Shown: one piece after another, positions 16,987 to 34,823 of the stretch | How positions within the stretch are numbered: the stretch's first letter is position 1 | Layout of the letters: the number at the start of each line of letters is the position of its first letter | Assembly: GCA_021735655.1 (NCBI GenBank) | Contig: JAIPGM010000004.1 | Coordinates: 95,874 to 159,873, forward strand | Source of the DNA: Candidatus Omnitrophota bacterium | GTDB taxonomy: Bacteria; Omnitrophota; Gorgyraeia; Duberdicusellales; 4484-171 | Length of the DNA: 64,000 nt | Direction: 5' to 3' | Notes under the pieces: model-generated | Database searches by the model: none | Told to the model about the DNA's origin: nothing | Seen by the model: only the letters and a program-made list of their open reading frames with translations | Program-made: the position numbers and the translations under genes

Positions 16987-17037
16987 AGGTCAATGGGATT
17001 CGACCCCACGATCACCTGCGTGATAGGCAATAGCCCC
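16987..17037 (-). repeat. Partial direct repeat of the tRNA-Asp 3' half (att-site remnant), left island boundary
   Basis: gaggtcaatgggattcgaccccacgatcacctgcgtgataggcaatagcccc aligns with 34678..34724 inside tRNA-Asp. There are identical blocks of 19 and 11 bp and about 5 mismatches over ~48 bp. No tRNA 5' half is adjacent. Confidence 0.7.
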
Positions 17038-17576
17038 TAAATAAAAACTCCTCTATTTTTAATGTCAACTACGTTTTAATTATAACATGTTGGTCAAATA
17101 GTGTCTATGCCCGGTTTAGATCTATATGGCCTAGGCTGGATTTGTGTCAATTAAGATAAAAAAATAAATTATCGATTTTTGATTGTTCATAAAATAAAAT
17201 TTATTTTGCTATCGCTAATATTATACTTCTTCCCGAAACTAAAGCAAACTTTATTAATCTTCACCCTTCTAATATCGAAATTAAAATATAAATTGCTTTA
17301 GTCTCTGTGAGCATGTTTTCGGGGATTTGATAGATAATGAAGACGGGCCGAATGTGACACTACTCAAACTACACAAGCCCAATCAATACAACTACTTGTG
17401 AAACTTTATAAAAAGCGTTCTATGGGCACTTTGATGTCCCTCGGCCAACCCATTAATAATTCAGCACCTTATCGAAAAGGTGTTTTATCACAACACCGGC
17501 AAAAAACCATGAAAATGGTCACTCAAAACTAAAATTCTCGATCCCTATACAAGCGCTAATCTTGGCGAGTGAAAAT

Positions 17577-18434
17577 CTACCTTTTACCGATAACCCGCCT
17601 ATACCTACCACGTTTTGGGTTTATCATAAGCTGACGAAAAGCCTCAGCTCGCTGATTTTCCCTCCACTTTTGTTCTTCAGCTTGTTGTTTCTCTTTTTCT
17701 CGTTGCTCATCCATGTGAGATAGAATATCTTGAGCTAAAAGCAAACGTGAATTATTTAAGGCACATTCTACAAAGTCTTTTCGACTAAGGCTGGCAACTA
17801 CAGCCCATCCGCCCATATCTCCCGGAAAAAGACACCAAAGAAAAGATCGCCTTTCATCTGCCTGATCGACAGGGGGAATACCTTGAAAATCAAAATAAAC
17901 TGGTACTGAGCTTTCAAGCCACCTTTTAGGAAAACATTCTTCTGGGAAATAGGTAAAATATATGCCTTTCCAAATTGAAGATCCAAAGTCTTTATGCCCT
18001 GACCCGGCATGGAAATCATTAGACCCTTTACAAAAACGTCGGTAGTCCATCGACAATCGTGTACCGTTAACAAGCCACACCATATTTTTATAAAAATTTT
18101 CACGACTCTTTATCTCATCAGAGTCGATTGCCGAATGCTGAAATTCTATTACAAGCCCACTGATCGTTTTTACATCTGCAATATGTTTTTCTTCATTCAT
18201 AGAATCAAAGTGCCCAAGCTCCTGCCATTCTTTCGGAAAATGTTTCTTCCATTCTCTGTGCCACTCCGCTTCATTCTCCCACCATGGATCACACAACGAT
18301 TTTCGCTTATGCTTCCAATGCCAAACTTTTTCTGCCCCACAATAAGCGATCATATCGCTTTGGCAATGCACACACGAACCTCGTAACCCCGGCTGAGCTT
18401 CCGTCTTATCTCCGCCAACCAGAGCAAATCTCAT
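17577..18434 (-). CDS. CoiA-like competence-family protein (putative nuclease-fold protein)
   Basis: 285 aa. N-terminal Cys-rich CVHCQSDMIAYCG...WHWKH. EKHIADVKT...VIEFQHSAIDSDEIKSRENFY resembles the CoiA core. Confidence 0.45.
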   Translation of the reverse strand: MRFALVGGDKTEAQPGLRGSCVHCQSDMIAYCGAEKVWHWKHKRKSLCDPWWENEAEWHREWKKHFPKEWQELGHFDSMNEEKHIADVKTISGLVIEFQHSAIDSDEIKSRENFYKNMVWLVNGTRLSMDYRRFCKGSNDFHAGSGHKDFGSSIWKGIYFTYFPEECFPKRWLESSVPVYFDFQGIPPVDQADERRSFLWCLFPGDMGGWAVVASLSRKDFVECALNNSRLLLAQDILSHMDEQREKEKQQAEEQKWRENQRAEAFRQLMINPKRGRYRRVIGKR

Positions 18435-18679
18435 ATTTTATTCCTTTTTTTTTCGGTGTTATTAGTGCAAGCCCATACTAAAGCGACAATCCACGCAATT
18501 CCCCCAGTAAAAACCATAAACAGGTTTAAGATAAATATGGCTAAAGCATTATTATGCTTCCTCTTTCTAGCAACAACAGTCGGCAAGAAATAAAAACCGA
18601 TGGCAACGATACCGCCAATAATTCCCAAAACAATCCATGCTACAGGGGCTTGATCCCACCAAGCAATAAAATCGCCCAT
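18431..18679 (-). CDS. Superinfection-immunity-like small membrane protein (Imm_superinfect-like)
   Basis: 82 aa, two TM helices. FLPTVVARKRKHNNALAIFILNLFMVFTGGIAWIVALVWA matches the Imm_superinfect pattern. Overlaps the CoiA-like gene by 4 nt. Confidence 0.5.
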   Translation of the reverse strand: MGDFIAWWDQAPVAWIVLGIIGGIVAIGFYFLPTVVARKRKHNNALAIFILNLFMVFTGGIAWIVALVWACTNNTEKKRNKI

Positions 18680-18710
18680 TCATTACTCCTAGAGAAAATC
18701 TCTTAAACTT

Positions 18711-18956
18711 TTACTTTTGTTCCTCATTTTCAAGAACATAACCTTGACCATAATCTATTATCTCTACCCATTGTTTACCTTTGTTTATGTTTAAATCCCA
18801 GACTCTGCCGGTTATGGTGTCACATTTCATCCACATCATTCCACCCAACTGACCACTTCCTTGATAAGTTGTGACTTGATATCTACCATTCAGTGCAAAC
18901 AAAAAGGCTGATACTGCCAAAGAAATACACAGAATCATTATTCCAAAATTCTTCAT
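18711..18956 (-). CDS. Small secreted/membrane-anchored hypothetical protein
   Basis: 81 aa with an N-terminal signal/TM segment. Confidence 0.35.
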   Translation of the reverse strand: MKNFGIMILCISLAVSAFLFALNGRYQVTTYQGSGQLGGMMWMKCDTITGRVWDLNINKGKQWVEIIDYGQGYVLENEEQK

Positions 18957-18997
18957 ATATCCTCCTGAGTCATTTAAACACTACCGTTTTGTAATCT

Positions 18998-19393
18998 CTA
19001 TTCTTCCTCATTTACAAAAATCGCCGTTCCTTTAACAACCTTGGCATTTACAGGCGCAACCCATATTGCACCACTCCCATAACCACCGGCCATAGTAGAT
19101 GTCTGAGTTCCCGTATTTGTTAATAACACACCGTTTGCGCCGATTTTTGCCGCTTGTTTTTTAAGCTCCGCAACTGCATAATCTTGTGAGTCTTGATCCG
19201 TCCATCCCGAATCACTTGATGCTTCAACAACCCCAAGCACATCATATTTCTTTGGTTCCTCTAAATAAAGCTTTACTGATTGTGGATCCGTAGATGGCCG
19301 GGCAGTTCCAGTAAGGATAACACTACCCGTTGCACAGCCTATGAGAAACGAAGCTACTAGGCAACAAACAATAATTTTGGAATATTGTTTCAT
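18998..19393 (-). CDS. Lipoprotein, hypothetical
   Basis: 131 aa. Signal peptide with lipobox LIGC. Confidence 0.45.
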   Translation of the reverse strand: MKQYSKIIVCCLVASFLIGCATGSVILTGTARPSTDPQSVKLYLEEPKKYDVLGVVEASSDSGWTDQDSQDYAVAELKKQAAKIGANGVLLTNTGTQTSTMAGGYGSGAIWVAPVNAKVVKGTAIFVNEEE

Positions 19394-20154
19394 CTTTTTG
19401 CCCCCTCTATTTTTTCTTTATCAGAAAATATGGAAATAACAGAAGCTTTGTTGTTGTCACCGCCAAACCATATCCAAAACACATTGTCATCTGAAGTCAT
19501 CATCGCACCGGTATATTTAGAGAACATATTTTTAGGGTTTGCTTCCTTAAAAGCATCCAAAAATTCGGGATAAAAAATCTCATCAAATTTTACCAAAAAT
19601 TCATCTCTATTTTTAATTTCGCCGAGATCTGTGTTTAATGGGTAATAAACCATGTTGGAGACTTTTTCTTTGTCTCGATTTAGGACTGATCTTTTGAAAT
19701 CTTGGGCAAAATTATCCACCATTTCATCATCGTCCATTCCGCCAATAGCATACATGGAATTCAAATCGCCTGCACTGCCATAATCCATTTTAAGCCTTAT
19801 ATGCCCAGTTGCTTCCGCAGAACTTATGTCTCCCGCAATAACTTCACGATTCAGCTTGGAATCTCCATAAGCGTCATCTTGATCTTGAAAAGACGCATTG
19901 ATCACTATGCCATCCTCATTTTTTAAAGTAATTTTTCTGCCATCAAGAGTTCCGGAAAGCGGAATGCTCATATAATCCGAATCAAAATATAACTCACCAA
20001 TTACATTCTCCTGATCATATACAAGAGTTAATCCACCAGTTTGACCTGCAATGTCGCCCCTGTATGTCCAGTGCCAATCTTTGGTGAATGAATCACAATG
20101 CCCCTCTGCGCCAGTGAACAACAGACAAAAAACAAATATAAGCAATGCCCGCAT
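19390..20154 (-). CDS. Secreted hypothetical protein
   Basis: 254 aa. N-terminal signal peptide. Acidic. No recognisable domain. Confidence 0.4.
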   Translation of the reverse strand: MRALLIFVFCLLFTGAEGHCDSFTKDWHWTYRGDIAGQTGGLTLVYDQENVIGELYFDSDYMSIPLSGTLDGRKITLKNEDGIVINASFQDQDDAYGDSKLNREVIAGDISSAEATGHIRLKMDYGSAGDLNSMYAIGGMDDDEMVDNFAQDFKRSVLNRDKEKVSNMVYYPLNTDLGEIKNRDEFLVKFDEIFYPEFLDAFKEANPKNMFSKYTGAMMTSDDNVFWIWFGGDNNKASVISIFSDKEKIEGAKR

Positions 20155-20156
20155 TC

Positions 20157-21467
20157 CTAGACCTCTTTTTCCTTTAAGAAATCAAGTACGGGCTTGAATT
20201 TCTTTATTGTACTGATGATTTCGCCCTCTAACTCTACTGATTCTGTAAGCACCTTAGTTCCTCTGTCAATAGAATACCTAAAGTGTATACCGGGAGCCCC
20301 CGGCTCTTTATCCGCTTTTTTCAAAACATCACAAATATATTGAACGTCTTTTTGCGTATTAATATCACTCAACTTCATTTCAAAGAATTTAACCCATTTT
20401 TCATTGCCGGGCATTATGCGTTTCCCTGTTCTCGGCAAACGTTTTGAAACTACCAGCCTCGATTCCTTTCTGGCACCGCTTATAACCTGAAGGAATTTAT
20501 TTGTATTTGTAGATATCCGATTAAAAAATATGCCGATAGGGGTCTTACTCTGAGATGTCCGACCGTTGCGGACAACAGTGTTGATATCCAAACAACTCTT
20601 TGAAACCTCAATAGTAAAATTACATTGGTTAAAAACGTCCTTGCCATCCTTTGGTCTTTTAATTGCGACCCAAGCAAACCTCTCATCCTTGCCACTTCTC
20701 GATATGTTCCCGGGCTTAATAAATGAATATTCAGAACCGATTTCTTTCGGCAGTTTTTCTTTTATGATATTTGCCAGAGCTTTAAGTTTTTTCCTGAGAA
20801 TAGGGACGTAATACGGATTGGGGTCAATCCAAAAATCAAAATCCGAGTCTTTGAATCCATTAAATTCGGTCATTACGACTACCTCCATGTAATCAATAAA
20901 CTGCTCAATTAATTGTGCAACCGCAGATAGCGATTTATTTCCTTTTATTTTCTCAACTGTGCGACGGCATATTTTATGAACCTTCGACCAGCTAAGGTAT
21001 CTAACACGGTTATCGCTAATGCTATTTAAACTGCTTTTGTCATCTAAATTGTTCGTTATAACAACAAGGACATCTTTAGCACCTATATCGCTCAAATGCC
21101 GTCTAATTTGATCAAGATCCAATCTTGCCCGAACTTTCGATTCAATATGGATATTGTAATCTGCCAAATCGATCAAAGCATCAGGTCTGCTACCGCTTAA
21201 TCCTTTCTGCAGTTTAAAAGAAACCACCGGGCGATTTGGTGCCTCGATTGCTTTTAAGAATCCAGACAAAAGGTCGACAAAACCTGCCTGACAGCAAAAT
21301 TCGAATATATTGACCAGCCCTTTGGTAGTGTTATCCTCAACTTGGAAATCATACAAGGATTCTTTATCTCGCTTAGAAGGCCCCCGGTAATAAAAAAATA
21401 TGTTCTGATGAGGATCTCTCACGCTTTTCTCCCATATTCGGTCTTTAAAAATTTGCCATAAGCCCAC
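20157..21467 (-). CDS. Hypothetical protein with an N-terminal PD-(D/E)xK-like nuclease motif
   Basis: 436 aa. RPDALIDLADYNIHIESK fits PD...(D/E)xK spacing. No other domain recognised. 49-nt overlap with the upstream 197-aa gene. Confidence 0.4.
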   Translation of the reverse strand: MGLWQIFKDRIWEKSVRDPHQNIFFYYRGPSKRDKESLYDFQVEDNTTKGLVNIFEFCCQAGFVDLLSGFLKAIEAPNRPVVSFKLQKGLSGSRPDALIDLADYNIHIESKVRARLDLDQIRRHLSDIGAKDVLVVITNNLDDKSSLNSISDNRVRYLSWSKVHKICRRTVEKIKGNKSLSAVAQLIEQFIDYMEVVVMTEFNGFKDSDFDFWIDPNPYYVPILRKKLKALANIIKEKLPKEIGSEYSFIKPGNISRSGKDERFAWVAIKRPKDGKDVFNQCNFTIEVSKSCLDINTVVRNGRTSQSKTPIGIFFNRISTNTNKFLQVISGARKESRLVVSKRLPRTGKRIMPGNEKWVKFFEMKLSDINTQKDVQYICDVLKKADKEPGAPGIHFRYSIDRGTKVLTESVELEGEIISTIKKFKPVLDFLKEKEV

Positions 21468-22012
21468 AGGGCTTCATCAAGCCGCTTCCATGCAACCCCT
21501 TTTTTGCATAGCTCATTAAAAAATGGGGCATACTCCGCAAAATATATTTGTTCTTTTTGCTTGTTGCTATTTGGAATTTCATTGCGTCGGTTTTGACTCA
21601 AAAAGATAAAAGCCCTATAAACATGCTGATCAAATATCGGGAAATCATTCGGCGTGATTATGTGTAAAAGATATATTTTCCAGATAGCTCCGTTTACAAA
21701 ACTGAAATCTTTTAAGAAAGAATCGAGGGAAAAAAAGTCCTTAAGGTTATTGATGACATTCAGCTTGGCTTTAATATTCGATAGCACTACTTCTTTTTTC
21801 TGGGATAGTTTACTCCCATTTTTCCAAATAAATAATTTATCAATATCATCGATGCTGAATTTTTTCTTTCCGATAATAGGGACGTAATAATCTTCCATAG
21901 GATAGTTATAAAAACTGCTCCAGAATTTAACAAACTCATCTATTGTGACATTTTTTGTGTTTAAAACCGGGAAATTCATTATTGCTCCGTTAAATTTTCC
22001 CCACTTGGACAA
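21419..22012 (-). CDS. Hypothetical protein, partner of the PD-(D/E)xK protein
   Basis: 197 aa. No recognisable motif. Overlaps and is likely co-transcribed with the downstream 436-aa gene. Confidence 0.35.
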   Translation of the reverse strand: MSKWGKFNGAIMNFPVLNTKNVTIDEFVKFWSSFYNYPMEDYYVPIIGKKKFSIDDIDKLFIWKNGSKLSQKKEVVLSNIKAKLNVINNLKDFFSLDSFLKDFSFVNGAIWKIYLLHIITPNDFPIFDQHVYRAFIFLSQNRRNEIPNSNKQKEQIYFAEYAPFFNELCKKGVAWKRLDEALWAYGKFLKTEYGRKA

Positions 22013-22059
22013 TAGGCTTCATCAGAAAAAACATTGTGCAAAATGTTATGATTTTACTT

Positions 22060-22557
22060 TTACTCATTCTTCTCCTTTTTTCCGTTCTTTATTACCTTTT
22101 CTAATGCGTGGATAACTTTATCGACTTGAATGTTTATATCACGCTTTATTAGATGCTCCCATAAACGGACCACAATCCACCCTTTTCTTTTTAAAAATAG
22201 AGTGGTTTTTTTGTCTCGCAATCGATTCTTTTCTATTTTTGTTTTCCAAAAATCATTCTTTAATAAATGCTTCCAGCGAGAATACTGCCAACCATGCCAA
22301 AAATCGCTATCTAAGAAAACACACAGTTTAGCTCTTTTAAAAACGATATCTGGCTTCCCTTTTATAAGTTGCACATTTCTCTCAAATGTTTTCCTTGTTC
22401 GTTTTTTTAATGCGCGAATGAAATCTTCCTCAAATTTTGTGTCTCGAGACCGTATTTTTGACATTACAACAGAACGGTGTTCTTTTGTGATTTTGTCTGA
22501 TTCTCGTTTTTTCTTAAAATTGCGACCTAAATAGTTTTTGATTCTTCTCTTTGTCAT
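22060..22557 (-). CDS. vsr: Very-short-patch-repair endonuclease
   Basis: 165 aa. SKIRSRDTKFEEDF...GKPDIVFKRAKLCVFLDSDFWHGW matches the Vsr catalytic core. Adjacent to an m5C methyltransferase. Confidence 0.75.
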   Translation of the reverse strand: MTKRRIKNYLGRNFKKKRESDKITKEHRSVVMSKIRSRDTKFEEDFIRALKKRTRKTFERNVQLIKGKPDIVFKRAKLCVFLDSDFWHGWQYSRWKHLLKNDFWKTKIEKNRLRDKKTTLFLKRKGWIVVRLWEHLIKRDINIQVDKVIHALEKVIKNGKKEKNE

Positions 22558-22560
22558 AGC

Positions 22561-23736
22561 CTAATAAGACAATCCATATTTCTTCATTGCTTCTTTTAGT
22601 AATGGCGGTGATTTCCGTTCACCAAAAGCGTCCCCTAAAAGATGTACTATAAATTTCTCAGTTTTAGGTAAAATAACACTTGAATGCTGAACGACTAAAC
22701 TCACCCATTTATCAACCAGTTCTTTTGTTCTTATATATTCCTTTAATTCCCAATAGTGCCTGACCTCGTCAACCGTGAGTTTTGAAACAATTTCAATAAT
22801 TTCTTTAGCGTTTCTTTGGAGGTAATAAAATATCTTTGGAATCTTATGGTACGCCACGTCATTAATAACAATTGTCTGTTGTCCTCCAGCGGTAAATCTA
22901 TCTCTAAGCGAAGAATCCACCACACCATGACGAGCCGCTAACCAAGTCGCGAAATTTTGATATTTTGTTTGACTCCTACCAAATATCTCAGGGAATCTTG
23001 CCATAGCTTCATTTCTAAAGCGATTCTGTTTATCTTCATGAAGATTGCCCCACAAAGTAACTGTGGGACTTAGCATGGCGTCAACTTCATCCCCGGGATC
23101 CATCCACCAAGGTTCTTCTCCTTTTTTAGAAATTTTGCGAAAATAACGAACAACTTCCTTAATCGGATTATCTTGTTTCCGCAAAATGTTATATTCCGTT
23201 CCCATCTTATCAAATATGGTTTTCCCAGAATCAAGCTCCATATCTATCAAATATCTCGGGGAATGGGTTACAGCGATGTCGTAAAGACATTCTTCATATC
23301 TTCGAAACTTAAACTTTGGTGGAGCGACCAGTCTTCCAAAAAATAGATATATTCTTTCAACGCCTTCAACTCTTGTTGTTTCAAGGACACTATTGCCAGT
23401 ACTACGCCAATGATCTTGTTTGGTAATTTTTACTTCCACTCCGTAATATCGTTTCGCCACTATATCTGGAAATTTATGCCCTGATATAAGTTGTATCGTT
23501 CCTTCAAATTCAGTTTTTTTCGATGAAATCAACATAGAACCGTAGACTTCTTTTTCAAAATCTGATGAAGATAATCCGCAATAGCGCTTTGGAGCTTTTG
23601 ACGCTTCATCTTGAATGGTTTTAATCCCACCGTTCAATAAAGTCTCAAAAGAATTCTCACTCGCTTCTGTCCTTTTAGATATAATCATTTTAATCCTTTC
23701 TTGAAAATCTTTGGCCATAGCTCCTGTAGACGCCAC
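22561..23736 (-). CDS. Putative type II restriction endonuclease
   Basis: 391 aa. HKFPDIV...YGVEVKITK is a PD-(D/E)xK-like motif. Overlaps the methyltransferase by 52 nt, the classic RM gene arrangement. Confidence 0.5.
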   Translation of the reverse strand: MASTGAMAKDFQERIKMIISKRTEASENSFETLLNGGIKTIQDEASKAPKRYCGLSSSDFEKEVYGSMLISSKKTEFEGTIQLISGHKFPDIVAKRYYGVEVKITKQDHWRSTGNSVLETTRVEGVERIYLFFGRLVAPPKFKFRRYEECLYDIAVTHSPRYLIDMELDSGKTIFDKMGTEYNILRKQDNPIKEVVRYFRKISKKGEEPWWMDPGDEVDAMLSPTVTLWGNLHEDKQNRFRNEAMARFPEIFGRSQTKYQNFATWLAARHGVVDSSLRDRFTAGGQQTIVINDVAYHKIPKIFYYLQRNAKEIIEIVSKLTVDEVRHYWELKEYIRTKELVDKWVSLVVQHSSVILPKTEKFIVHLLGDAFGERKSPPLLKEAMKKYGLSY

Positions 23737-25693: not shown

Positions 25694-25746
25694 TTTAATC
25701 CCTCGTTTAATCCCTCATTTAATCCCTCACGCACGCCAAATCATAC

Positions 25747-25947: not shown

Positions 25948-25983
25948 TTCTTCCGCATTTTCTACCGCAATTACACTCTCATT

Positions 25984-27084: not shown

Positions 27085-27085
27085 C

Positions 27086-27262
27086 TTAGCAATTCCTCCT
27101 GCTCTTAATAAATTCTTCTAAATCTTCCGGCTTGATCTTCCACTGACCGATCTTCACGGCTTTAATTTCTTTTTTGCGTATTAAGTCTCGAATCCATTCA
27201 TCGGTAAGTCCGAGTTTTTCGGCTACTTCAGGTACAGTGAGATACTCTTTTATGTTTTCCAT
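27086..27262 (-). CDS. Excisionase-family HTH_17 small protein (not in the ORF track; below its size cutoff)
   Basis: Reverse-strand ATG at 27262 gives MENIKEYLTVPEVAEKLGLTDEWIRDLIRKKEIKAVKIGQWKIKPEDLEEFIKSRRNC, 58 aa. Same HTH_17 pattern as 11455..11694. Confidence 0.55.
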   Translation of the reverse strand: MENIKEYLTVPEVAEKLGLTDEWIRDLIRKKEIKAVKIGQWKIKPEDLEEFIKSRRNC

Positions 27263-27752
27263 AATTTTACACCTCGTGGAGTTATTGACTATGTATTACC
27301 ATATTCAAAACAGCATTAGTCCCTATTTTAGTACTATTAAACCCAATGGTCAAGCAAAATGCTCATAAACACTGCAATTACGATAATGCCGGATTATGCC
27401 CCGGATTTATAATCCCGCACCTCTGATATATCATTTCCCACGGCTAAAGACTCAAAATAATCGACTTTTGCGGAAATCTAATCAATTTCGGCGTATCTTG
27501 AAGCTGAAATGACCCAAAATAACTCCTTATTATCATTTAAGCCAGTAAATGATAATATGGCATTTTCTTATTATCACTTCCTTATAAGATTTGTGATGAA
27601 AATGGGCTCCGGATCAATTATCCTCACATCCGTTGTAACAGCCAAAACACGACAACACGACATTTTTCATGTCGTATAATGTCGTGTTTTTCAGGCTATT
27701 TTCGCCTTAAAAATTAGCTCTAAATATCCATAACACACATAAATACAAGCAT

Positions 27753-28007
27753 TTACGCAATATTAGGCTTTTTGCCATCACCAGACAATAGGACATGACA
27801 TCGATTTTTTATTTTAAGGTCACTGACAGACTGCCCCTCGCCCGACCCTCGGCAAACCCCCATGGTAAGGACCCATCTTTTTATGGCTTCCGGAGTTATA
27901 TTCAGCTTAAGCTTCACCTCATACCCATCAGGTGATTTTATCGTCACATAGGTCCAGAAGCCCGGCTTCCATTTCTTCTTTTTACGCTTATATCTGTACC
28001 ATCCCAT
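27753..28007 (-). CDS. Hypothetical basic protein
   Basis: 84 aa. Lys/Arg-rich N-terminus. No recognisable domain. Confidence 0.3.
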   Translation of the reverse strand: MGWYRYKRKKKKWKPGFWTYVTIKSPDGYEVKLKLNITPEAIKRWVLTMGVCRGSGEGQSVSDLKIKNRCHVLLSGDGKKPNIA

Positions 28008-28151
28008 AGATCACGTCCTTTTAAAATGCGTGCGGAGAAGGGCGTCAAGGAGGTTTACCAAAACAACGCCCCTTATCAGTCGCATTTAACTGATAAAACC
28101 TCTGCGATGGAACAGTTAAGCATCGCATACAGTTTCCCCGCATTATTTGTT

Positions 28152-28826
28152 TTAATCAATAACCGCTTCCTTTTTTTCCACAGGTTGAGGTCGATATCTT
28201 TTCATGATCTGGCGAATTTCTTTCTCAAGATCAAAGTTTGAAACCCAGTTGCTTTTACTTCTGATTTCTTCCTCAACATCAGCCACAGTAGGACGGTTTA
28301 ACCCAGCGATAACCCTGTCTTTTTCAGCATGAAATACATCATACGCCTCAGTGCCTAAGCTCGGGCTAAATGCCGGATATGATTCCAGATCACGCTTTGT
28401 CACCGCAGGGTGTCCATGTAAAGCAAAAGCCAATCCAAAAAGTTTTCCTTTTGCTTTCCAGAGATCAAGTTTTGCCTTATCACGGTCACGATTAAGGCGT
28501 TTTCTGATCTCTATAACTTTCTGAGATTCATCATCTTTCAAAGTGGTGAAAGCATCCTCAAGTTTTTCTTTTAGCTTCTCAAGGCTTTCGGACACCACGT
28601 CGAGATTGATATTGCATTCCTCCAAAGCTGAATCCGCTTCTTTTACAGCATTTGGATTAGCTTTTTCACCGCACATAATCCTGCTTCTGATTTCTTTTGC
28701 TTTTTCTTTAGCGTCTTGTTTTTCTTTTTCACATTGCTTCTGCTTCTCCTCAAGAGCTACGATCTGCTCGGCGATCTCATCTGGCGTGCTTTTGTCTTTT
28801 AACACATTTAAAAAATTAAGCTTCAT
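28152..28826 (-). CDS. Hypothetical coiled-coil protein
   Basis: 224 aa. E/K-rich heptad-like N-terminal half. Confidence 0.4.
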   Translation of the reverse strand: MKLNFLNVLKDKSTPDEIAEQIVALEEKQKQCEKEKQDAKEKAKEIRSRIMCGEKANPNAVKEADSALEECNINLDVVSESLEKLKEKLEDAFTTLKDDESQKVIEIRKRLNRDRDKAKLDLWKAKGKLFGLAFALHGHPAVTKRDLESYPAFSPSLGTEAYDVFHAEKDRVIAGLNRPTVADVEEEIRSKSNWVSNFDLEKEIRQIMKRYRPQPVEKKEAVID

Positions 28827-28830
28827 TGTC

Positions 28831-29244
28831 TTATCTCCTTTTTTTAGGTGCGGTTATTGATAATGCTTCTTCAAACGGACAATCCGTTTCGTTCTGATAC
28901 TTTCGAGCACGCCAAACATGATCAAGCTGTTCTGCGATTACCACACTGCCTGAATCTGCTTCTTTTTCCGGTGCGGTCTTACTTAAAGCGTCAGTTAACG
29001 TGCATTCAAATTTCTCACGGTACTCATACGCTTTCTTTAAGTGGTCAAGACGGACATCGCCTTCACTCGCCATGCTATCGTTCTTCTTAGCAGTCGCCTG
29101 CAAGGCTTCTGTGAGTGAACAGTTGTGCCTCATCATATAAAGATTAGCGTCAATTAAATGAACGAGTTGTTTTTCTTCAGTTGACCCCGGAACATACCGG
29201 CTGTTCATCCCGCTTATTGTGTTTAATAAATGAGCTTGTTTCAT
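28831..29244 (-). CDS. Hypothetical protein with three internal repeats
   Basis: 137 aa. Repeats: CSLTEALQATAKK, CTLTDALSKTAPEK, CPFEEALSITAPKK. Confidence 0.4.
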   Translation of the reverse strand: MKQAHLLNTISGMNSRYVPGSTEEKQLVHLIDANLYMMRHNCSLTEALQATAKKNDSMASEGDVRLDHLKKAYEYREKFECTLTDALSKTAPEKEADSGSVVIAEQLDHVWRARKYQNETDCPFEEALSITAPKKRR

Positions 29245-29343
29245 TTTTTATTCCTCCTGTTTTTTTGTTTATCCACACTAAAAATATCCTTAATTTTCAA
29301 TCCATAATTACATCATTTTCACCCCCTTTTCTGATGATCGTGA

Positions 29344-29634
29344 GCGTTGTGAACGTCGATTCCACTACTTTCTAAATCCCTCTTTACGCCTCTTTTACAC
29401 CCCTTTTTTGTGACTTTCCTGACCCTTTCCCTTATATTTTTCTTTTTTTAGAACAGAGGGGTTTTTACGTTCACAATGTTCACAAACCACACAAATCCTT
29501 GTAGATTAAGAAGTTAACCACTGAGCGTAGGTGTGACCGTAGACTCTGGACGTTCACAACGTTCACACTTTTCAGTACGGTCTCGGGTCCTCACGGTCAC
29601 AACGCTCACCGACGTTCACACCGACGCTCACACC
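29344..29634. repeat. Cluster of at least 8 copies of ACG(T/C)TCACA in both orientations (iteron/operator-like)
   Basis: gcgttgtgaacgtcg; acgttcacaatgttcacaaaccacaca; gacgttcacaacgttcacac; cggtcacaacgctcaccgacgttcacaccgacgctcacacc. Lies between the primase 3' end and the 28831..29244 gene start. Confidence 0.6.
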
Positions 29635-31935
29635 ATTTTCAAAGAGCGAATTGCCCTTAGTTTTCCGTAAAATAAACAGCTTCCTGCCGGTACCGGCTTC
29701 ACGTTTATTACTACGTAAAATATCAATCCCCACACTCCTCATAACAGGTGCGATACGCATAAGTTCAGAAGCTAAAGCCCTAGCATTAGCGGGAATTGTT
29801 TTATCAAATCCTGTCTCAGGCTGAACACTTGAAAGAAGCGTAGTCGCAGAACCTGCCCATTCACCACCGTTAAATTCCACAAGATAAGTAAGCCTCTGTG
29901 CAAGCGTGCTTTCTTCGGCAGTATCTTCCCATTTATGATCAACCGACTCCTGATACTTCTGTAAAAACTCATCCTGTGAAAAGCCTAAATATCCCGACAA
30001 GCCTGAACCCCATTTAGCGAAATCCGACATCCTGAAACGTTCATGCCCTGATACTCCGTCAACAATAGCCATAGCTTTTGAAAGGGCGGTAAAGAATCCG
30101 CCGAGAATGCCCGGCAAAGAAGCCCTCCACTCATCAGCGATTTGTTTTTCAGGTCTTGTTTCTTTGAGAATAGGAATATCGAATATTATTGATCTATCTA
30201 AAAGGTCGGGTCGGCAGATGGAACTGCCTATGCCGTTTAAAACAAAACATCTGCGGTACGTCCTTATAAATTCTTCGTCATTAGTGTAGAGTGACCGTTT
30301 CATGTCGCCTTCACCGGTTACCGCACGACATAAAAAATCACTGAACCATTCAGATACACGAGAGAGATTGTCGAAGTTATTCACCCAATGCTTATCAGCG
30401 ATCATCTGAGCCTGTTCTAAGTCTTTGGGAGCCGAAATTGACATTACTTTTGACGGATCACATAAACTTTTTATTAATCGGGAATTATTTGACTTACCAG
30501 TGCCTTGCTCGCCGAGTTGGACAGGTATAACATGGGGAATATCAGGAATGAAAAACGTAGCTATAACCGTCATAAAAAGGCAGGCGTCATCTTTATTAAT
30601 ATTACAGAAGTCTAAAAGTTTTATCGGATCAAATCCTTTAACAGGCATGACCTGCTCAGACTGGTGAGGGTAACGCTTAAATATCGGCGGGAGAAAAACA
30701 ATTTCCCAGCCGTCTTTTGTAATCACAACTCCACGCCAGTCTTTAGTCGTAAGGTCGTAATAAATCGCTCCGTTATACCAGCCTACACGGTTATACAGCT
30801 CAATCTGCCGACCGCCTTCGCATTGTGCCTCAACCTGAATACGTGCCTGTTTTAACGCCTCATTGCCCGGAGGATGACCGAAATCCCTGCGGTACCGCAT
30901 TGCAAAACAGTTCCTGAAACGTGAACTGCTCGTCTGGCATACTTCAAAGTGTTTATCATAAGGAAGGACAACATAAGGATTGCCCTGCTGATCGGAAAAA
31001 TATTCCGTGATCATTTCTTCACAGTCCCGGGTTATTATCTCGCCTTGAGTAAGCTTCTTTTGCTTAGGAGTGTTTGAAGCAGTAAATTCGTCCTTAGTAT
31101 CCTGAATCGCTTTATCAATTGCCGATTCTCCGTATGTCTTGCCATCGCTAAAATGCTTCTCATCCCACTTTGATCGCATAAGACCAGAGTGACGGAACAA
31201 AGAATCCATCCCCACAGAATCTTTGCCAGTCCAAAAGGCGAGTTTATTGCATAAAGCAAGATCCGCTTCTGATTGGGAAGGATAATCATCCTGCCATCTG
31301 CCTTCATATAATTTAAAGAAACTATCTGCGTCTTTGCTTTTCCTGATCCTGTTAAGGAGAGATTTTACTTTCTTATTCTCCGCGTCCAGATTTTCAAGAT
31401 GTTCATACAAGGCTTTGAGCTTGTCGGAACATTCGACAATCTTGTCATTACAGCCCTTAACAATGTCTCCGGTCGTAATAAGAAATCTATTCCCTGAATA
31501 CATCTCCACATTAAACGAGCTGAACTTGCGGTCTCTGGGAAGCGTGCCTTTGCAGATAGTGTGAAGTCCTGTTCCGCTGACTGAATATTCTGTGTAACTG
31601 TTAAGCTCGGATATTATTTTTTGGACGAAAGGCGTAATAATTCCGTCTTTAATACAGTTATCAAAATCTATTCCCGCATGTGGCGATCTAAGGGCAAAAC
31701 CGATAGCATCAAATTTCAAGATTTCAGCTTTGGATAAAACCACATCCAACGCACACCATGTCTTTGGATTATTTGATTGGGCATGTCCGCCGGTAAGCGC
31801 ATTGATAGGTTCTTTCCGTGGCTTTTTACCTTTTTGAGGAACAAACCGGAAGCCCACCCATATAGGCAAGTCTTTCATTTCCTGCGGTATATTTTCCACA
31901 TACCATTTCTTCTCTTTTCTTCTCTCTTTCTTCAT
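29572..31935 (-). CDS. DNA primase-polymerase (prim-pol N-terminal domain) fused to a P-loop SF3-helicase-like domain (P4/D5-type primase-helicase)
   Basis: 787 aa. Prim-pol-like N-terminus. Walker A GEQGTGKSNNS mid-protein. The last ~20 codons read through the repeat cluster, so the real stop may be earlier. Confidence 0.6.
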   Translation of the reverse strand: MKKERRKEKKWYVENIPQEMKDLPIWVGFRFVPQKGKKPRKEPINALTGGHAQSNNPKTWCALDVVLSKAEILKFDAIGFALRSPHAGIDFDNCIKDGIITPFVQKIISELNSYTEYSVSGTGLHTICKGTLPRDRKFSSFNVEMYSGNRFLITTGDIVKGCNDKIVECSDKLKALYEHLENLDAENKKVKSLLNRIRKSKDADSFFKLYEGRWQDDYPSQSEADLALCNKLAFWTGKDSVGMDSLFRHSGLMRSKWDEKHFSDGKTYGESAIDKAIQDTKDEFTASNTPKQKKLTQGEIITRDCEEMITEYFSDQQGNPYVVLPYDKHFEVCQTSSSRFRNCFAMRYRRDFGHPPGNEALKQARIQVEAQCEGGRQIELYNRVGWYNGAIYYDLTTKDWRGVVITKDGWEIVFLPPIFKRYPHQSEQVMPVKGFDPIKLLDFCNINKDDACLFMTVIATFFIPDIPHVIPVQLGEQGTGKSNNSRLIKSLCDPSKVMSISAPKDLEQAQMIADKHWVNNFDNLSRVSEWFSDFLCRAVTGEGDMKRSLYTNDEEFIRTYRRCFVLNGIGSSICRPDLLDRSIIFDIPILKETRPEKQIADEWRASLPGILGGFFTALSKAMAIVDGVSGHERFRMSDFAKWGSGLSGYLGFSQDEFLQKYQESVDHKWEDTAEESTLAQRLTYLVEFNGGEWAGSATTLLSSVQPETGFDKTIPANARALASELMRIAPVMRSVGIDILRSNKREAGTGRKLFILRKTKGNSLFENGVSVGVNVGERCDREDPRPY

Positions 31936-31937
31936 TG

Positions 31938-32207
31938 TTATGCTCCGTTCTGAAATATGAAGTCTTTAACCTTCCTGTAACATTGAAATAACTGCTCCTC
32001 TTTGGAGTTATTGAAAAACTTATCCGCCAGCTTGCGTGTTTTCTCGGCATCATCGAAAAGGATTCGTTTCTGCCTGCCAACTCCCGATAAACCCTTCATG
32101 TCGCACCCCTTTGATACGAGGTACGTGGCTAAATAAATATTCCCCGCTTCAAAATAATTTTCTTCCATAATTCTTTCCTTTGCTTTTCCTGCACTAGGTA
32201 CATACAA
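31938..32207 (-). CDS. Small hypothetical protein (DUF5659-like), commonly next to mobile-element primases
   Basis: 89 aa. MEENYFEAGNIYLATYLVSKG. Directly upstream of the primase and probably co-transcribed. Confidence 0.35.
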   Translation of the reverse strand: MYVPSAGKAKERIMEENYFEAGNIYLATYLVSKGCDMKGLSGVGRQKRILFDDAEKTRKLADKFFNNSKEEQLFQCYRKVKDFIFQNGA

Positions 32208-32217
32208 CTTTTTTCCT

Positions 32218-32995
32218 TAAAATGTTGCACCCATTTTCAGATATACGACGTACCCCTGAAAACTGTCGGGATTTATTTCCCTATGGGGTATATACGACGA
32301 CTTTTCGCATTTTGTCCCACTGCAAGATGTTTTTACCCCTCACTACGTACATACAGATTTTTTTCAAAAAGTGTCCCCCCTTAGAGCGTATATACGTAAA
32401 AAAACTTTAAAATGTTGCAGGCTAAACTAAAATTTTTCATAATCAGCCATCCTCAAAGCGTATATACGGAAAAATTTCTCAAAGTGTCTCAGCTTTTTTA
32501 CATTTTTTTTAAAATCTGCCCTCCAGAGCATACATACGTATAAATTTCCCAAAATGTTGCATGCTAAATTAAAATTCTTGCCCCCACCGGGTACATACAA
32601 CTTTTTTTGCCAAAGTGTCTCACTAAAAATCAAAATATCTGTCCCATAGCGTATATTCCCCGCATTTCTCAAAAGTGTCAGAAATATTTTCTTCCCACAG
32701 CGTACATACCGGGTTTTTCCAAAAAGTGTCGGGCTTATTTTGCTTCTATTCATGTATTCAGGATTTTTTCGAAAAGTGTCGGATTTTTCTAACCCCCTAT
32801 TAGTACATTCCGGATTTTTCTACAAAGTGTCGGAACTTTTTTTATTTTTCCTGCAACACTTTCAAGGAAAACGTCGTATATACGTATTAGGGTGGGACAC
32901 TTTCGCCTAAAAAACTGTATATACGTAGTAGGGAGGTAATTTTCTTGAAGAAATTTCCGACACTTTCGGCATTTTTCCGGAATATACATATATGG
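32218..32995. repeat. Iteron-like array: about 11 direct and 3 inverted copies of a bipartite motif (C)GTATATAC(G) ... ~10-12 nt ... AAAGTGTC, period ~50-70 bp
   Basis: Direct units start near 32241, 32290, 32348, 32389, 32460, 32530, 32592, 32651, 32703, 32753 and 32803. Inverted units lie at 32853..32991. CGTATATACG is itself a palindrome. Confidence 0.8.
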
Positions 32996-33059
32996 AGGGT
33001 ATTAGCTTGACTTGTCCCGAAGGGTGTTATAGGGGTGTTGTATTAAGGAGGTTTTAAAA

Positions 33060-34715
33060 ATGAGCGCAGAGAAGAAAAGAAAAAAGTTCGTGATTTACAC
33101 ACGCTGTTCAACTGATGATCAGGCAAAGGGTGATTTCACCACGCTTGACGCTCAGGCTCACCACTGCCGGAATATGCTTGATGCATTCGGCTACGAAATG
33201 GCTGATTTTGGGGATAAAGGCATCATTAATGATGACGGCTATTCAGGCAAAGATCTGAACCGCCCCGGCATTCAAGCTATTCTTAAAGACATCCAATCCA
33301 AGAAGTCGTTTGACGGTATTATATTCTTCAGGCTTGATAGGCTGACGCGCAATCCTCGTGACCTTTACGGCATGATCGACACGTTTAAGGCTGAGGATAT
33401 CGACTTTTTATCAGTGAGAGAAAATCTGGACAGCTCAACAGCCATAGGCAGGGTTATGATCGGCATAATCGGCTTATTGTCGGCATTTGAGCGTGAACTT
33501 ACAGGTGAACGCGTCCGTGCTTCGGCTATCGCCAGAGCAAGGCAGGGCAAATGGGTCGGCGGCAAACCGCCTTTTGGTTATAGGTTGGTTAAAACCGGGG
33601 AACAATTATCGAATGGCCGTAGACCCAGCCGAATAGTTATCGATACAGCTATCGCGCCTTATATCCATATGATCTTTAAACTGGCCGCTGATAATAAAAC
33701 TCTCTCGGAAATCGGAAATGAACTCCTCAAAAGAAACGTTCCCACGTTCAAAAGTAAAGTATGGTGCAAACAAACAATATCGAAAATCATCAAAAACCCT
33801 TTTTATAAAGGAATGATTTCTTACGCGGGGGAAATAAGCAAAGGATTACATGAAGCGATCGTAAATGAAGCCCTTTGGAGAAAAGCGAATAAAATTATAT
33901 CCGCTAATATCCCCGGGCATAGATTTCTGAAAACCACGCATGATTATAAACACCTGCTAAAAGGTATTCTTCGCTGTGGATCATGCGGAAGCTATTATAT
34001 CTCCACACACGCTAAAGGAAATATGGGGAATAAATTCTATTATTACGAATGTAGCAAGACACGCCAAAAGCTCGGATGTAACGCGAAAAGAATATCATCG
34101 ACCGGATTTGATCAAGCTGTCATTAAATTCCTAAACAGAGCCTCAGAGGATCAGGATATCATTATCAACGCCATAGGAAACGCCATTAAAGATTCCTCCG
34201 CTAATCTGCATAAATACGATAAAGACATCCGTGAAATAAAAAAGAAAATTGACTCAGTAAAAGAGTCAACAGATAAACTGATCGATCTGGCTATGAATAG
34301 CGTTATCCCCAAGGGACGCACATATTCAGAAAAAATGGACGCTCTTGAGTTAGAGTTAACTTTGCTTGAGGATAAACTTTCGAAGAAGGAGGCTAATAAA
34401 AAAGCCGCTGAAATGTCGGTACACTCCAACGAATACCTGCACACAAACCTTAAGATCGCTATGCAATACCTCGAGCAAGCCCCGCCAGACGCCCAAATCG
34501 CCCTTTTAAAGGTGCTTATCAAAGAAATAAGGCTCTATGACGATCATGTTAAGCTGGAAATGTATATCGGCGAGCCTGACGGCGGGATTGTGCGGGATCT
34601 AATCCTGAAGGAACCCCAAAAACAGCAAACTCCGCCCCCTTTTGAGGGACAGAGTTCGACTGGTTGTCAACTATGGCGGGGTCGATGGGATTCGAACCCA
34701 CGATCACCTGCGTGA
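33060..34715 (+). CDS. Large serine recombinase (integrase)
   Basis: 551 aa. Resolvase catalytic N-terminus FVIYTRCSTDDQ. Recombinase domain. Zn-ribbon CGSCGSYY...YYECS...GCNAKR. Coiled coil. The 3' end overlaps tRNA-Asp by 39 nt. Confidence 0.85.
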   Translation: MSAEKKRKKFVIYTRCSTDDQAKGDFTTLDAQAHHCRNMLDAFGYEMADFGDKGIINDDGYSGKDLNRPGIQAILKDIQSKKSFDGIIFFRLDRLTRNPRDLYGMIDTFKAEDIDFLSVRENLDSSTAIGRVMIGIIGLLSAFERELTGERVRASAIARARQGKWVGGKPPFGYRLVKTGEQLSNGRRPSRIVIDTAIAPYIHMIFKLAADNKTLSEIGNELLKRNVPTFKSKVWCKQTISKIIKNPFYKGMISYAGEISKGLHEAIVNEALWRKANKIISANIPGHRFLKTTHDYKHLLKGILRCGSCGSYYISTHAKGNMGNKFYYYECSKTRQKLGCNAKRISSTGFDQAVIKFLNRASEDQDIIINAIGNAIKDSSANLHKYDKDIREIKKKIDSVKESTDKLIDLAMNSVIPKGRTYSEKMDALELELTLLEDKLSKKEANKKAAEMSVHSNEYLHTNLKIAMQYLEQAPPDAQIALLKVLIKEIRLYDDHVKLEMYIGEPDGGIVRDLILKEPQKQQTPPPFEGQSSTGCQLWRGRWDSNPRSPA

Positions 34716-34752
34716 CAGGCAGGGGACTTAAGCCAGGCTAATCGACGACCCC
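34677..34752 (-). tRNA. tRNA-Asp (GTC)
   Basis: Reverse strand GGGGTCGTCGATTAGCCTGGCTTAAGTCCCCTGCCTGTCACGCAGGTGATCGTGGGTTCGAATCCCATCGACCCCG. 7-bp acceptor stem. Anticodon loop CTGTCAC. TTCGAAT T-loop. G73 discriminator. Confidence 0.85.
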
Positions 34753-34823
34753 GAGTAGAAATAACTAAGTAAAATTAAGGCTGGAATCTAGATTCTACGT
34801 CTTAATTTAAAATTGTCAACTAT

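Follow-up and report, generated by a model that had tools for sequence, protein, structure and literature searches.

One-way genome insertion relies mainly on serine integrases, whose natural targets are, to our knowledge, almost always protein-coding genes. Large serine recombinases (LSRs) recombine short att sites (about 40-50 bp) through a 2-bp crossover, and attP and attB lack long homology; integration is unidirectional, and excision requires a directionality factor. Elements that integrate into tRNA genes usually carry an identity block running from the anticodon stem to the tRNA 3' end. Serine recombinases at tRNA genes have been described for phiRSM (tRNA-Ser, 3' 13 bp), for a Mycobacterium AICE (tRNA-Leu) and for 14/297 S-Int in the TIGER survey (PMC4471427; PMC3218068; PMC7192596), and Mageeney et al. 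remarked that the use of t(m)RNA genes by S-Int had not been reported before and that proof was needed. Gene-disrupting recombinases have been reviewed as exclusively archaeal (PMC8371274).

Here we analyzed a 64,000-nucleotide stretch (the window) from Candidatus Omnitrophota bacterium (GCA_021735655.1, contig JAIPGM010000004.1, positions 95,874 to 159,873), together with a comparison set of about 160 related loci. We put at roughly 0.8 the probability that the window holds an integrative self-replicating element that its own LSR inserted at the very 3' terminus of tRNA-Asp(GTC), with an attP lying inside the LSR reading frame.

Organization of the element and its recombinase

The element occupies positions 17344-34676 (about 17,333 bp) with a 4-bp CGGG core at each end. 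An initial annotation had placed a ~17.6 kb island at this tRNA-Asp; its description of an accessory element with an LSR abutting the tRNA holds, as does its list of accessory genes, while the size is revised to 17.3 kb and the ends are moved to the CGGG cores. GC content, put forward there as a check, does not set the island apart (0.35-0.44 inside vs 0.36-0.45 outside). The features of the region are as follows.

16977-17029, minus strand: orphan tRNA-Asp 3' fragment, 8 nt upstream of a peptidase start codon (16969)
17030-17343, no strand: AT-rich non-coding spacer; left of CGGG no homology to L163 or L005
17344-17347, plus strand: attL core CGGG, identical to the attR core
17344-17532, plus strand: detached LSR gene 3' end, 62 codons and stop; BLASTP match to the L005 LSR C-terminus
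17577-27084, minus strand: variable cargo, whole block; not common to related elements L003 and L006
17577-18434, minus strand: CoiA-like nuclease (variable cargo)
18431-22012, minus strand: six ORFs of 81-436 aa, no family match at threshold
22060-22557, minus strand: Vsr (variable cargo)
22561-23736, minus strand: type II restriction enzyme (variable cargo)
23685-24974, minus strand: C5-cytosine methylase (variable cargo)
24971-25693, minus strand: RadC (variable cargo)
25747-25947, minus strand: wHTH protein (variable cargo)
25984-27084, minus strand: YhcG/PDC-S02 nuclease (variable cargo)
27086-27262, minus strand: HTH_17 excisionase-family protein, 58 aa (PF12728, E 7e-16; phrog_66 excisionase)
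27753-29244, minus strand: three conserved core genes of unknown function (84, 224 and 137 aa), 85% nt identity to L003
29572-31935, minus strand: NrS-1-type primase-polymerase, 787 aa, the element's replication protein
31938-32207, minus strand: DUF5659 small protein, adjoining the primase in related elements too
32185-32990, no strand: iteron array of direct and inverted ~45-55-nt repeats, core GTAyATAC...AAAGTGTC
33060-34715, plus strand: LSR, integrated truncated form, 551 aa (Resolvase, Recombinase, Zn_ribbon_recom)
34647-34676, plus strand: P arm of the att site, inside the LSR ORF, GAGTTCGACTGGTTGTCAACTA followed by TGG
34677-34680, plus strand: attR core CGGG, equal to discriminator G73 and C72-C70 of tRNA-Asp
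34674-34752, minus strand: tRNA-Asp(GTC), target gene (ARAGORN, CCA included)

The defense cargo comprises type II restriction-modification with Vsr, the YhcG/PDC-S02 nuclease and RadC. The iteron array is the presumed replication origin, and the 58-aa HTH_17 protein, placed at the edge of the conserved core module, is a candidate recombination directionality factor.

The LSR is the sole recombinase in the element, and no Phage_integrase match indicative of a tyrosine integrase was found in the scanned island ORFs of at least 58 aa. Its catalytic domain (PF00239, E 1.3e-30, residues 11-165) is followed C-terminally by a Recombinase domain (PF07508, E 5e-16) and a zinc ribbon (PF13408, E 2e-11). 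Among 33 homologues the motif Y13-T-R-C-S17, which supplies the Ser nucleophile, is nearly invariant and Trp539 is invariant, and most homologue tails read W-x-x-G-x-DSN, which is the T loop in antisense. Against solved structures, the LSR scores best with the catalytic domain of the TP901-1 integrase (E 5e-24) and with SPbeta SprA (E 2e-10); no integrase from deposited phage genomes exceeds 32% identity.

Boundaries of the element

At the right end, the intact tRNA-Asp that had been annotated at 34677-34752 is recovered by ARAGORN with the slightly wider limits listed above, and the reported overlap with the recombinase is borne out: the 551-aa ORF ends antisense within the tRNA, its final 12-13 residues and stop being the antisense strand of tRNA-Asp. 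The TGG of the P arm is both the codon of the invariant Trp539 and the antisense of CCA, and the split after residue 539 falls past all Pfam domains. The acceptor 3' strand and T arm of tRNA-Asp would serve as the B' half-site, with the encoded CCA of the tRNA coming from the element. An encoded CCA is present in 41/41 target tRNAs vs 37/58 non-target tRNAs, and four of the five other tRNA genes of the host are without one. The window, L001, L003, L091 and L002 are alignable through ...GTCAACnATGGCGG and diverge immediately beyond. The LSR of L091 (84% identical) lies at tRNA-Asp in a different host; that of L001 (98% identical) adjoins tRNA-Ser(GGA), and there the sequences part directly after TGGCGG, which places the crossover at the CCA/discriminator end and not within the tRNA body.

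At the left end, joining position 34676 to 17344 yields an open, uninterrupted LSR ORF of 601 aa. The 62-aa tail matches residues 549-599 of the 600-aa LSR of L005 (61% identity, BLASTP E 2e-18), and the intact LSRs P0005 and P0110 end in the same tail. The motif CAACTACTTGTGAAAC lies in the detached LSR 3' end exactly 45 nt past the TGG-equivalent position, and CAAyTAsTTGTGArA at exactly this distance after TGG is common to L005, L035, L039, L146 and the window. Homology between the window and contig L163 begins exactly at CGGG and continues rightwards at ~80%, their left flanks being unrelated. Public data hold 21 short ORFs that end with the tail behind varied N-termini; of 14 tail ORFs read, 8 have W-R before the tail and nothing LSR-like upstream, the pattern that attL junctions should give. 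In the window itself the TGG position reads AGA, the last letters of the spacer, preceded by an in-frame stop (TGA, 17338-17340). The right end of this spacer is the B arm of attL, and the spacer as a whole may be a remnant of an older element.

Both element ends and the reconstitution of the LSR ORF are established at the level of sequence, and from the left-end homology and the restored 601-aa frame it follows that attP lies inside the LSR gene and that integration splits the gene. The P' arm corresponds to the first ~25 nt of the detached 3' end. The only sequence common to attL and attR is CGGG, inside which the crossover dinucleotide presumably lies. These boundaries were derived by comparing different elements, the window being the only locus with both ends on one contig because the other elements exceed the 10-kb flank; a search for an empty attB or an excised circle of this element found neither.

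The initial annotation had drawn the boundaries from a ~50-bp direct repeat of the tRNA 3' half, given as 16987-17037. The repeat is real and is refined here to 53 nt (16977-17029 vs 34669-34721, same orientation, 89% identity), with a local-alignment score of 82 vs 25.8 +/- 2.8 (maximum 36) for shuffled sequence. One of its edges lies 5 nt beyond the CCA position and the other within the anticodon stem, 3 nt into its 5' strand, and, as had been stated, no tRNA 5' half accompanies the left copy (no ARAGORN call; Rfam tRNA 14.3 bits vs a gathering score of 29). That the two copies are an attL/attR pair would mean a classical tRNA island, with an attP carrying the tRNA-Asp 3' half, a crossover inside the repeat, and 16977-17029 as the true attL. 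Such an island would account for a highly significant repeat spanning the anticodon stem to the tRNA 3' end, and for an orphan copy at the place expected of the original tRNA, 8 nt upstream of the peptidase; in peptidase relatives a tRNA gene lies 28-100 nt upstream of the peptidase. We nevertheless regard it as very improbable, and the pairing is rejected, given the crossover at the CCA/discriminator end seen with the 98%-identical LSR at tRNA-Ser and the left end at 17344. In its circle, TGG and the tail would be separated by ~311 nt and the orphan copy, interrupting an ORF that is contiguous in L005, P0005 and P0110, and L163 is homologous to the element from CGGG onwards only. Moreover, the orphan copy has the tRNA-type (attB-type) motif spacing and not the attP-type, a far-end tRNA repeat is absent from the other loci over the 10 kb available, and a long repeat is not required, since LSRs need only 2-bp identity between att sites.

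The fragment was also considered as a displaced tRNA piece marking the far end of the element and was rejected: it stops at 17029, ~315 nt outside the left end, and both ORF reconstitution and homology to L163, L005 and L146 put the start of the element at 17344. The fragment has TAG replacing CCA, the T-loop GTCGAAT and the anticodon ATC. It is probably a displaced tRNA half from an older insertion, separate from this element. For an origin within this LSR system, as a secondary or decoy attB or as the junction of an earlier family member, speak the attB-type spacing of its T-arm motif and the likeness of the 8 nt ahead of its acceptor strand (AAGTATAG) to the P arm end (AACTATGG); in L110, L111, L120 and L132, moreover, a family LSR adjoins the 3' half of a tRNA-Asn that is cut at the anticodon loop. 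We hold this origin improbable, since an LSR crossover at the tRNA end duplicates no tRNA sequence, the ~311-nt spacer bears no trace of an LSR 3' end, and the fragment core is CGAG, not CGGG.

Target use across the recombinase family

The LSR family is large and mostly from Omnitrophota. A complete antisense tRNA begins at TGG in 79/110 distinct junctions, covering 7 amino-acid types and 11 anticodons, so that in the sequences compared the association between LSR and tRNA is family-wide. This association identifies the LSR as the agent of insertion, which it presumably catalyzes. Close relatives are found at tRNA-Ser(GGA) or tRNA-Asp, whereas members of other clades use the tRNAs for Gln, Asn, His, Glu and Arg; this range is explained by the B' half-site, as acceptor 3' strand and T arm are common to all tRNAs. 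L110 and L113 are 99.98% identical until 13-16 nt past TGG and different beyond. CGAAC-like motifs lie at +22..26 after TGG in P' arms and at +17..21 in tRNAs. The dyad axis of the attP form peaks between the two G of TGGC-G|G, a weak signal of 111 summed matches vs ~85 by chance.

Loci in which the LSR runs into the tail have an apparent attP form, yet some of them, L035 and L005, lie in chromosomal contigs and may be tandem arrays and not free forms. Taken further, with the same element ends, all LSR-into-tail loci could be head-to-tail arrays that join a P arm to the P' arm of a second element at the same tRNA, and a functional long LSR may then never be made. In keeping with arrays, the 67-kb contig that carries L005 has a second family LSR at tRNA-Ser(GCT) ~40 kb downstream, L035 is in a complete chromosome and has no tRNA in the surrounding 10 kb, and no contig has the terminal overlap that would indicate a circle. 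This extended version appears unlikely to us, because in many independent sequences, orphan copies among them, the tail frame is open, conserved at the protein level and always continuous with the frame of Trp-Arg. In addition, the long tails of L035, L039 and L024 are mutually homologous (E 1e-12 to 1e-16) and that of L078 contains an HTH_ParB domain, which points to a translated C-terminal extension.

Proposed mechanism and implications

Under the favored reading, of an element with attP in its LSR frame, the P arm would be the last ~25 nt before TGG, the crossover would take place in CGG(G), corresponding to the discriminator and first acceptor-stem pairs of the tRNA, and the P' arm would be the following ~25 nt of the ORF. 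The predicted attP of the free form is ...GTCAACTATGG-CGGG-CCGAATGTGAC... and the predicted attB is ...GATAATGAAGA-CGGG-GTCGATGGGATTCG... In the free form the gene would encode a 601-aa protein. Integration would join the P arm to the tRNA, so that the LSR ends 12 residues into the tRNA antisense strand, TGG gives the tRNA its encoded CCA, and the far end of the element retains the last 62 LSR codons. Excision, presumably carried out by the truncated LSR together with a directionality factor (candidate: the 58-aa HTH_17 protein), would rebuild the long form, in which the tail may have a function.

A broader reading, which we offer tentatively and at somewhat less than even odds, is that a widespread bacterial LSR family (Omnitrophota and neighboring phyla) carries attP in its own ORF, with a Trp codon doubling as CCA. 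Recognition of the generic acceptor and T arm would let near-identical enzymes use Ser-GGA or Asp, and a change from a long episomal isoform (conserved tail, HTH domain in some) to a short prophage isoform would help to set the direction of recombination. If true, bacteria would have, among their serine recombinases, a counterpart of the archaeal "suicidal" integrases. A family targeting the conserved tRNA 3' end would offer attB sites in almost any genome, with an insertion that keeps the tRNA intact and adds its CCA end, and an attP in the integrase ORF, a placement that the literature assigns to archaeal tyrosine integrases alone, would tie two isoforms to the integration state, making directionality control directly testable. 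For many elements of Omnitrophota and of related metagenome-assembled genomes, the analysis also gives exact boundaries (TGG + CGG/CTG/GGT...), and it illustrates how a tRNA-fragment repeat can mislead boundary calls where elements pile up at one tRNA.

Comparison with known systems

The window LSR shares its resolvase, recombinase and zinc-ribbon domains with LSRs of phages and integrative elements (TP901-1, A118, SPbeta SprA, phiC31, Bxb1); as in those systems its att cores appear to be short and without long homology, and half-site motifs of attP and attB type are offset by an apparent 5 bp, which fits established site geometry. Like classical tRNA islands, the element has an intact tRNA at one end, an adjoining integrase gene, accessory cargo and a tRNA 3' fragment nearby, but it has no tyrosine integrase and the fragment is not its boundary. 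With phiRSM and the AICE and TIGER cases the element shares a serine recombinase that has a tRNA target, and phiRSM too uses a tRNA 3' end, that of tRNA-Ser; however, phiRSM Int is of the small resolvase/invertase type, whereas the LSR here has 551/601 aa with Recombinase and zinc-ribbon domains. The AICE and TIGER cases differ in being computational with a single target each, and none of the phiRSM, AICE or TIGER cases has been described with an attP inside the recombinase gene, with a Trp codon that doubles as CCA, or as a family covering seven tRNA identities. With SSV-type ("suicidal") integrases the element has in common a site within the integrase gene, tRNA targets and a gene partitioned on integration (PMC8371274). 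Those are tyrosine recombinases of archaeal viruses and plasmids whose split is thought to be inactivating, while here a bacterial serine recombinase loses only a 62-aa tail (up to ~150 aa in relatives) and keeps its catalytic and DNA-binding domains intact.

Target tRNA, flanks and direct repeat

The initial annotation described a tRNA-Asp abutted by a large serine recombinase (LSR), with a distant repeat of the tRNA 3' half, and this observation is confirmed by ARAGORN, by protein domains and by a repeat alignment score of 82. The features concerned are as follows.

16977-17029, orphan copy of the direct repeat
17344-34676, element as delimited by comparison with relatives
33060-34715 (+), LSR ORF, 551 aa
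34669-34721, repeat copy in the tRNA-Asp
34674-34752 (-), tRNA-Asp(GTC), ARAGORN

The LSR contains all three large-serine-recombinase domains and ends inside the tRNA-Asp, on the opposite strand; a tRNA-Val/Leu/Cys cluster comes next. The repeat copies are 53 nt long and 89% identical (shuffled sequence scores 25.8 +/- 2.8); they begin 5 nt outside the CCA position and take in the first three nucleotides of the anticodon-stem 5' strand. The left copy, described as lacking a tRNA 5' half, is indeed not a tRNA: ARAGORN makes no call there and the Rfam score, 14.3 bits, falls below the threshold of 29. It is degenerate, with TAG for CCA, a T-loop of GTCGAAT and an ATC anticodon. Gene content between the repeats is accessory. 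Both flanks hold housekeeping genes: to the left an M28 peptidase/spermidine-synthase fusion, to the right gmk, yicC, ndk, parAB and yidC. GC content, proposed as a means of telling inside from outside, shows no contrast between island and flanks.

A recombinase family at tRNA 3' ends

Hundreds of LSR homologues exist at 50-98% identity, with names mostly from Omnitrophota. The closest (locus L001, 98%) lies beside the same primase/DUF5659 module and abuts tRNA-Ser(GGA) in another genomic context, and in a third host an LSR of 84% identity (L091) is found next to tRNA-Asp. Alignment of the window with L001 and a 75% relative holds up to ...GTCAACnATGGCGG, and the sequences diverge immediately beyond. 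Family loci from species genomes (80) and IMG/VR (52) gave 110 distinct junctions. At 79 of these the LSR meets a complete tRNA, always antisense and starting exactly at TGG; nine others reach a contig end within 75 nt of TGG, and 22 have no complete tRNA. The 79 tRNAs comprise Gln (27), Ser (22), Asn (17), His (7), Glu (3), Asp (2) and Arg (1).

Aligning 33 homologues shows that the Trp specified by TGG never varies, and most C-termini follow the pattern W-x-x-G-x-D-S-N, an antisense translation of the acceptor strand and T loop. CCA is encoded by 41/41 target tRNAs, in a set examined before the full junction count, versus 37/58 non-target tRNAs. Since all target tRNAs encode CCA and many non-targets do not, the TGG is part of the element, with the crossover to its right. 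CCA is absent from four of the five other tRNA genes of the window's host (Val, Leu, Cys, Glu; 35059-35340, 49207-49283). The targeted tRNA-Asp does encode CCA, supplied by the Trp codon of the element. About 25 nt before TGG (ggttcgNctgNNcgtcaacaa) are conserved at the nucleotide level across the family, as expected for an att half-site.

Left end of the element and the detached recombinase tail

Homology between the window element and loci L003 and L006 covers 27097-34676, a core module of an HTH_17 protein, three small genes, the primase, DUF5659, iterons and the LSR; variable cargo lies to its left. Position 27097, at the start of the HTH_17 gene, was rejected as the element's left end and marks only the core-module edge. 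The decisive match came from L005, where no tRNA is present and the DNA directly after the LSR TGG is homologous to window 17372-17509. The motif CAAyTAsTTGTGArA stands exactly 45 nt after TGG in L005, L035, L039, L146 and the window, where the TGG-equivalent position (17341-17343) reads AGA. When 33060-34676 is fused to the sequence that starts at 17344, the reading frame stays open for 601 aa. The extra 62 residues match positions 549-599 of the L005 LSR (600 aa) at 61% identity (E 2e-18); the intact LSRs P0005 and P0110 carry the same C-terminal tail. In the window, an in-frame TGA (17338-17340) stands just ahead of the tail fragment.

An exhaustive protein search with the 62-aa tail returned 22 matches, 21 of them real; the other, P0245, was discarded as a spurious repetitive protein. 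Most of the 21 are short ORFs with the tail at their end, behind varied N-termini. Among 14 that were read, eight have W-R before the tail and nothing LSR-like upstream, two resemble C-terminal LSR fragments and three are without the Trp. One match, contig L163, is ~80% identical to the window rightwards from CGGG and unrelated to the left of it. This break at CGGG, the open 601-aa ORF and the shared tail together place the left end of the element at 17344. The initial annotation had taken the 53-nt repeat copies for attL and attR, and its interpretation is thus partly supported: element, target and enzyme stand, and the att sites do not, as the left end is placed at 17344 and not at the repeat.

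The stretch 17030-17372 is not a decayed LSR 3' end (score 24 versus a shuffle mean of 25.8). In IMG/VR, a 23-nt and a degenerate left-end pattern recovered only the L005 contig, already known, and a metagenome search with a 20-nt pattern yielded L005 and 14 chance matches. A weight matrix of the P arm (LSR-gene DNA before TGG) found no P' arm (tail-side DNA after the core) on the opposite strand, its top match being a conserved stretch in the LSR N-terminal coding region. In this stretch the P-arm core recurs in inverted orientation (33136-33168, minus-strand reading; motif TTLDAQAHHC), and it does so at the same place in L002-L007; in relatives the P-arm GCCTGAGCGTCAA matches TTGACGCTCAGGC at this site. 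It is the top opposite-strand match in every locus tested, scoring 10-13 versus at most 6 elsewhere in the window, and may be a coding coincidence or an additional site, beside the gene, at which the LSR binds. A second short conserved tail type, W-R-C-x-C/L-x-x-I/V-R-x-F/Y-Y/F after the Trp (L006, L098, P0033), is common to elements with LSRs only ~65-77% identical to the window's, so that the P' arms fall into more than one conserved family.

Predicted att sites and integration mechanism

In the window, attL reads aga-CGGG-ccgaatg and attR reads tgg-CGGG-gtcgatg. The reconstructed attB is ...gatagataatgaaga-CGGG-gtcgatgggattcgaaccc and the reconstructed attP is ...gttcgactggttgtcaactaTGG-CGGG-ccgaatgtgacactactcaaac, with predicted junctions GTTGTCAACTATGG-CGGG-CCGAATGTGACACTAC for attP and TTGATAGATAATGAAGA-CGGG-GTCGATGGGATTCGAACC for attB. 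The latter represents a tRNA-Asp without encoded CCA, like most tRNAs of the host. Comparison with relatives establishes both element ends, places attP inside the LSR ORF, and shows that integration swaps the last 62 LSR codons for 12 tRNA-antisense codons (RGRWDSNPRSPA), with the LSR tail left behind at the element's opposite end.

The crossover probably falls within CGG(G), corresponding to G73/C72/C71 of the tRNA. Beyond TGG, relatives whose P' arms are of other types have only CGG in common, and the window's B arm, on the target side, differs from TGG at 2/3 positions. Loci L110 and L113 are 99.98% identical until 13-16 nt past TGG and then different, which again places the crossover at the tRNA end. 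A CGAAC-like motif of the P' arms is found at +22..26 after TGG in L002, L006, L146 and L163, and reads CGAAA in L005 and CAAAC in the window; the tRNA CGAAC of the T loop is at +17..21, and the P arm has the mirror motif GTTCG at the far spacing. Serine integrase sites are known to have half-sites of attP type and attB type that are offset by 5 bp, and the motif spacing appears to fit this geometry. A symmetry scan places the dyad axis of the attP forms between the two G of TGGC-G/G, with a weak signal (111 matches versus ~85 expected). The B' half-site would consist of the tRNA acceptor strand and T arm, where tRNA-Asp and tRNA-Ser(GGA) match at 18/25 positions, which fits the use of both by 98%-identical enzymes.

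A 58-aa HTH_17 excisionase-family protein at the core-module edge is a candidate directionality factor. Among relatives, the longer LSR tails share homology with each other, and that of L078 has an HTH_ParB domain; a regulatory or DNA-binding role for the tail, tied to the free state, is plausible.

Origin of the 53-nt repeat

The orphan copy lies ~315 nt left of the element's end and 8 nt upstream of the peptidase start. It cannot belong to the circular form, because there it would separate TGG from the tail and interrupt the ORF. The possibility that it is a P' arm that mimics a tRNA was dropped when tail homology put P' at 17344. Its T-arm motif is at the tRNA (attB-type) spacing, and two relatives of the flanking peptidase have a tRNA gene 28-100 nt upstream. 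No tRNA-like direct repeats or orphan T-arm hairpins were found in the 10 kb upstream of other LSR loci, a flank that most elements exceed. In the simplest reading, the original place of the tRNA-Asp would have been immediately before the peptidase gene; an earlier element, of which 311 nt are left, would have displaced the original 3' half by crossover in the anticodon stem-loop; and the LSR element would have inserted later, at the CCA end of the rebuilt tRNA.

The mirror situation is seen in L110, L111, L120 and L132, where the LSR of the family is directly followed by the 3' half of a tRNA-Asn, broken at the anticodon loop, which suggests that a second, anticodon-loop-specific element later entered the same tRNA and gave composite arrays. 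These 3' halves stop at the same point (ggtta/c) and are followed by unrelated DNA.

Empty site, element type and genomic surroundings

Exact matches to the proteins of the flanking gmk and peptidase genes came from the same organism only (Logan SRR12088349), with the same left junction as the window and contigs (L083, L084) that break at ~27,675 and ~35,058. In this independent assembly the breaks fall around the conserved core module, as if the sample contained more than one copy or variant of it. Peptidase homologues, at most 69% identical and not syntenic, provided no empty site; scanning JGI metagenomes for the exact pattern of the predicted attB gave no match; and small contigs with long-form LSRs had no terminal overlaps. 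Across these searches, neither an empty site nor a circle of this very element was found. Upstream of the peptidase homologue in two JGI groundwater contigs (L087, L088) are small resolvase-domain and GIY-YIG genes. Contig JBAYES010000003.1 (L005/L064; IMGVR_UViG_3300014206_004182) has two family LSRs, the first in long form (4.8-6.6 kb) and followed by HNH, HATPase_c_3, Dcm and Z1-domain genes, the second abutting tRNA-Ser(GCT) at ~48.6 kb; two elements may be arrayed here head to tail at a single tRNA.

Besides the LSR, the window element has a primase-polymerase of NrS-1 type and an array of iterons, without capsid, terminase or conjugation genes, and is an integrative element, presumably self-replicating, of plasmid-like or satellite-like character. 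Its defence cargo comprises a type II methylase, a restriction enzyme, Vsr, a YhcG/PDC-S02 nuclease and RadC. Many relatives are listed as viral in IMG/VR, some with other replication modules. Further features of the element and its surroundings are as follows.

~11455-11694 (-), 79-aa HTH_17 (excisionase-family) gene among host genes, between an ABC transporter and a FAD oxidoreductase, as listed in the L084 gene table
25682-25728, tandem 12-nt units (TTTAATCCCTC-like), 3-4 copies, between the RadC gene start and a small wHTH gene
39500-46700, chromosomal origin region, with yidC
41510-42844, dnaA
42940-44037, dnaN
44318-46669, gyrB

GC skew changes sign at ~40-44 kb, and the element is only ~7 kb from the dnaA-dnaN-gyrB region. 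The 79-aa HTH_17 gene may be a relic of another mobile element.

Comparison with known systems

By its domains the window enzyme is a bona fide LSR, at most 32% identical to integrases of deposited phages, with TP901-1 and SprA as its best solved relatives. No description of this LSR family was found in the searchable literature. Serine recombinases at tRNA genes are rare but already reported: the small integrase of phiRSM targets the 3' 13 bp of a tRNA-Ser (PMC4471427), eight Mycobacterium AICEs with serine recombinases are located at tRNA-Leu (PMC3218068), and the TIGER survey placed 14/297 S-Int elements at tRNA genes, its authors stating that such use was unreported before and that proof was needed (PMC7192596). 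In SSV-type archaeal tyrosine integrases the att site lies in the integrase gene, which is partitioned on tRNA insertion, an arrangement that a 2021 review describes as confined to archaea (PMC8371274). The window system resembles these in its att site within the integrase gene, its tRNA target and its split gene, and differs in its serine chemistry, its bacterial host and the removal of the C-terminal tail alone.
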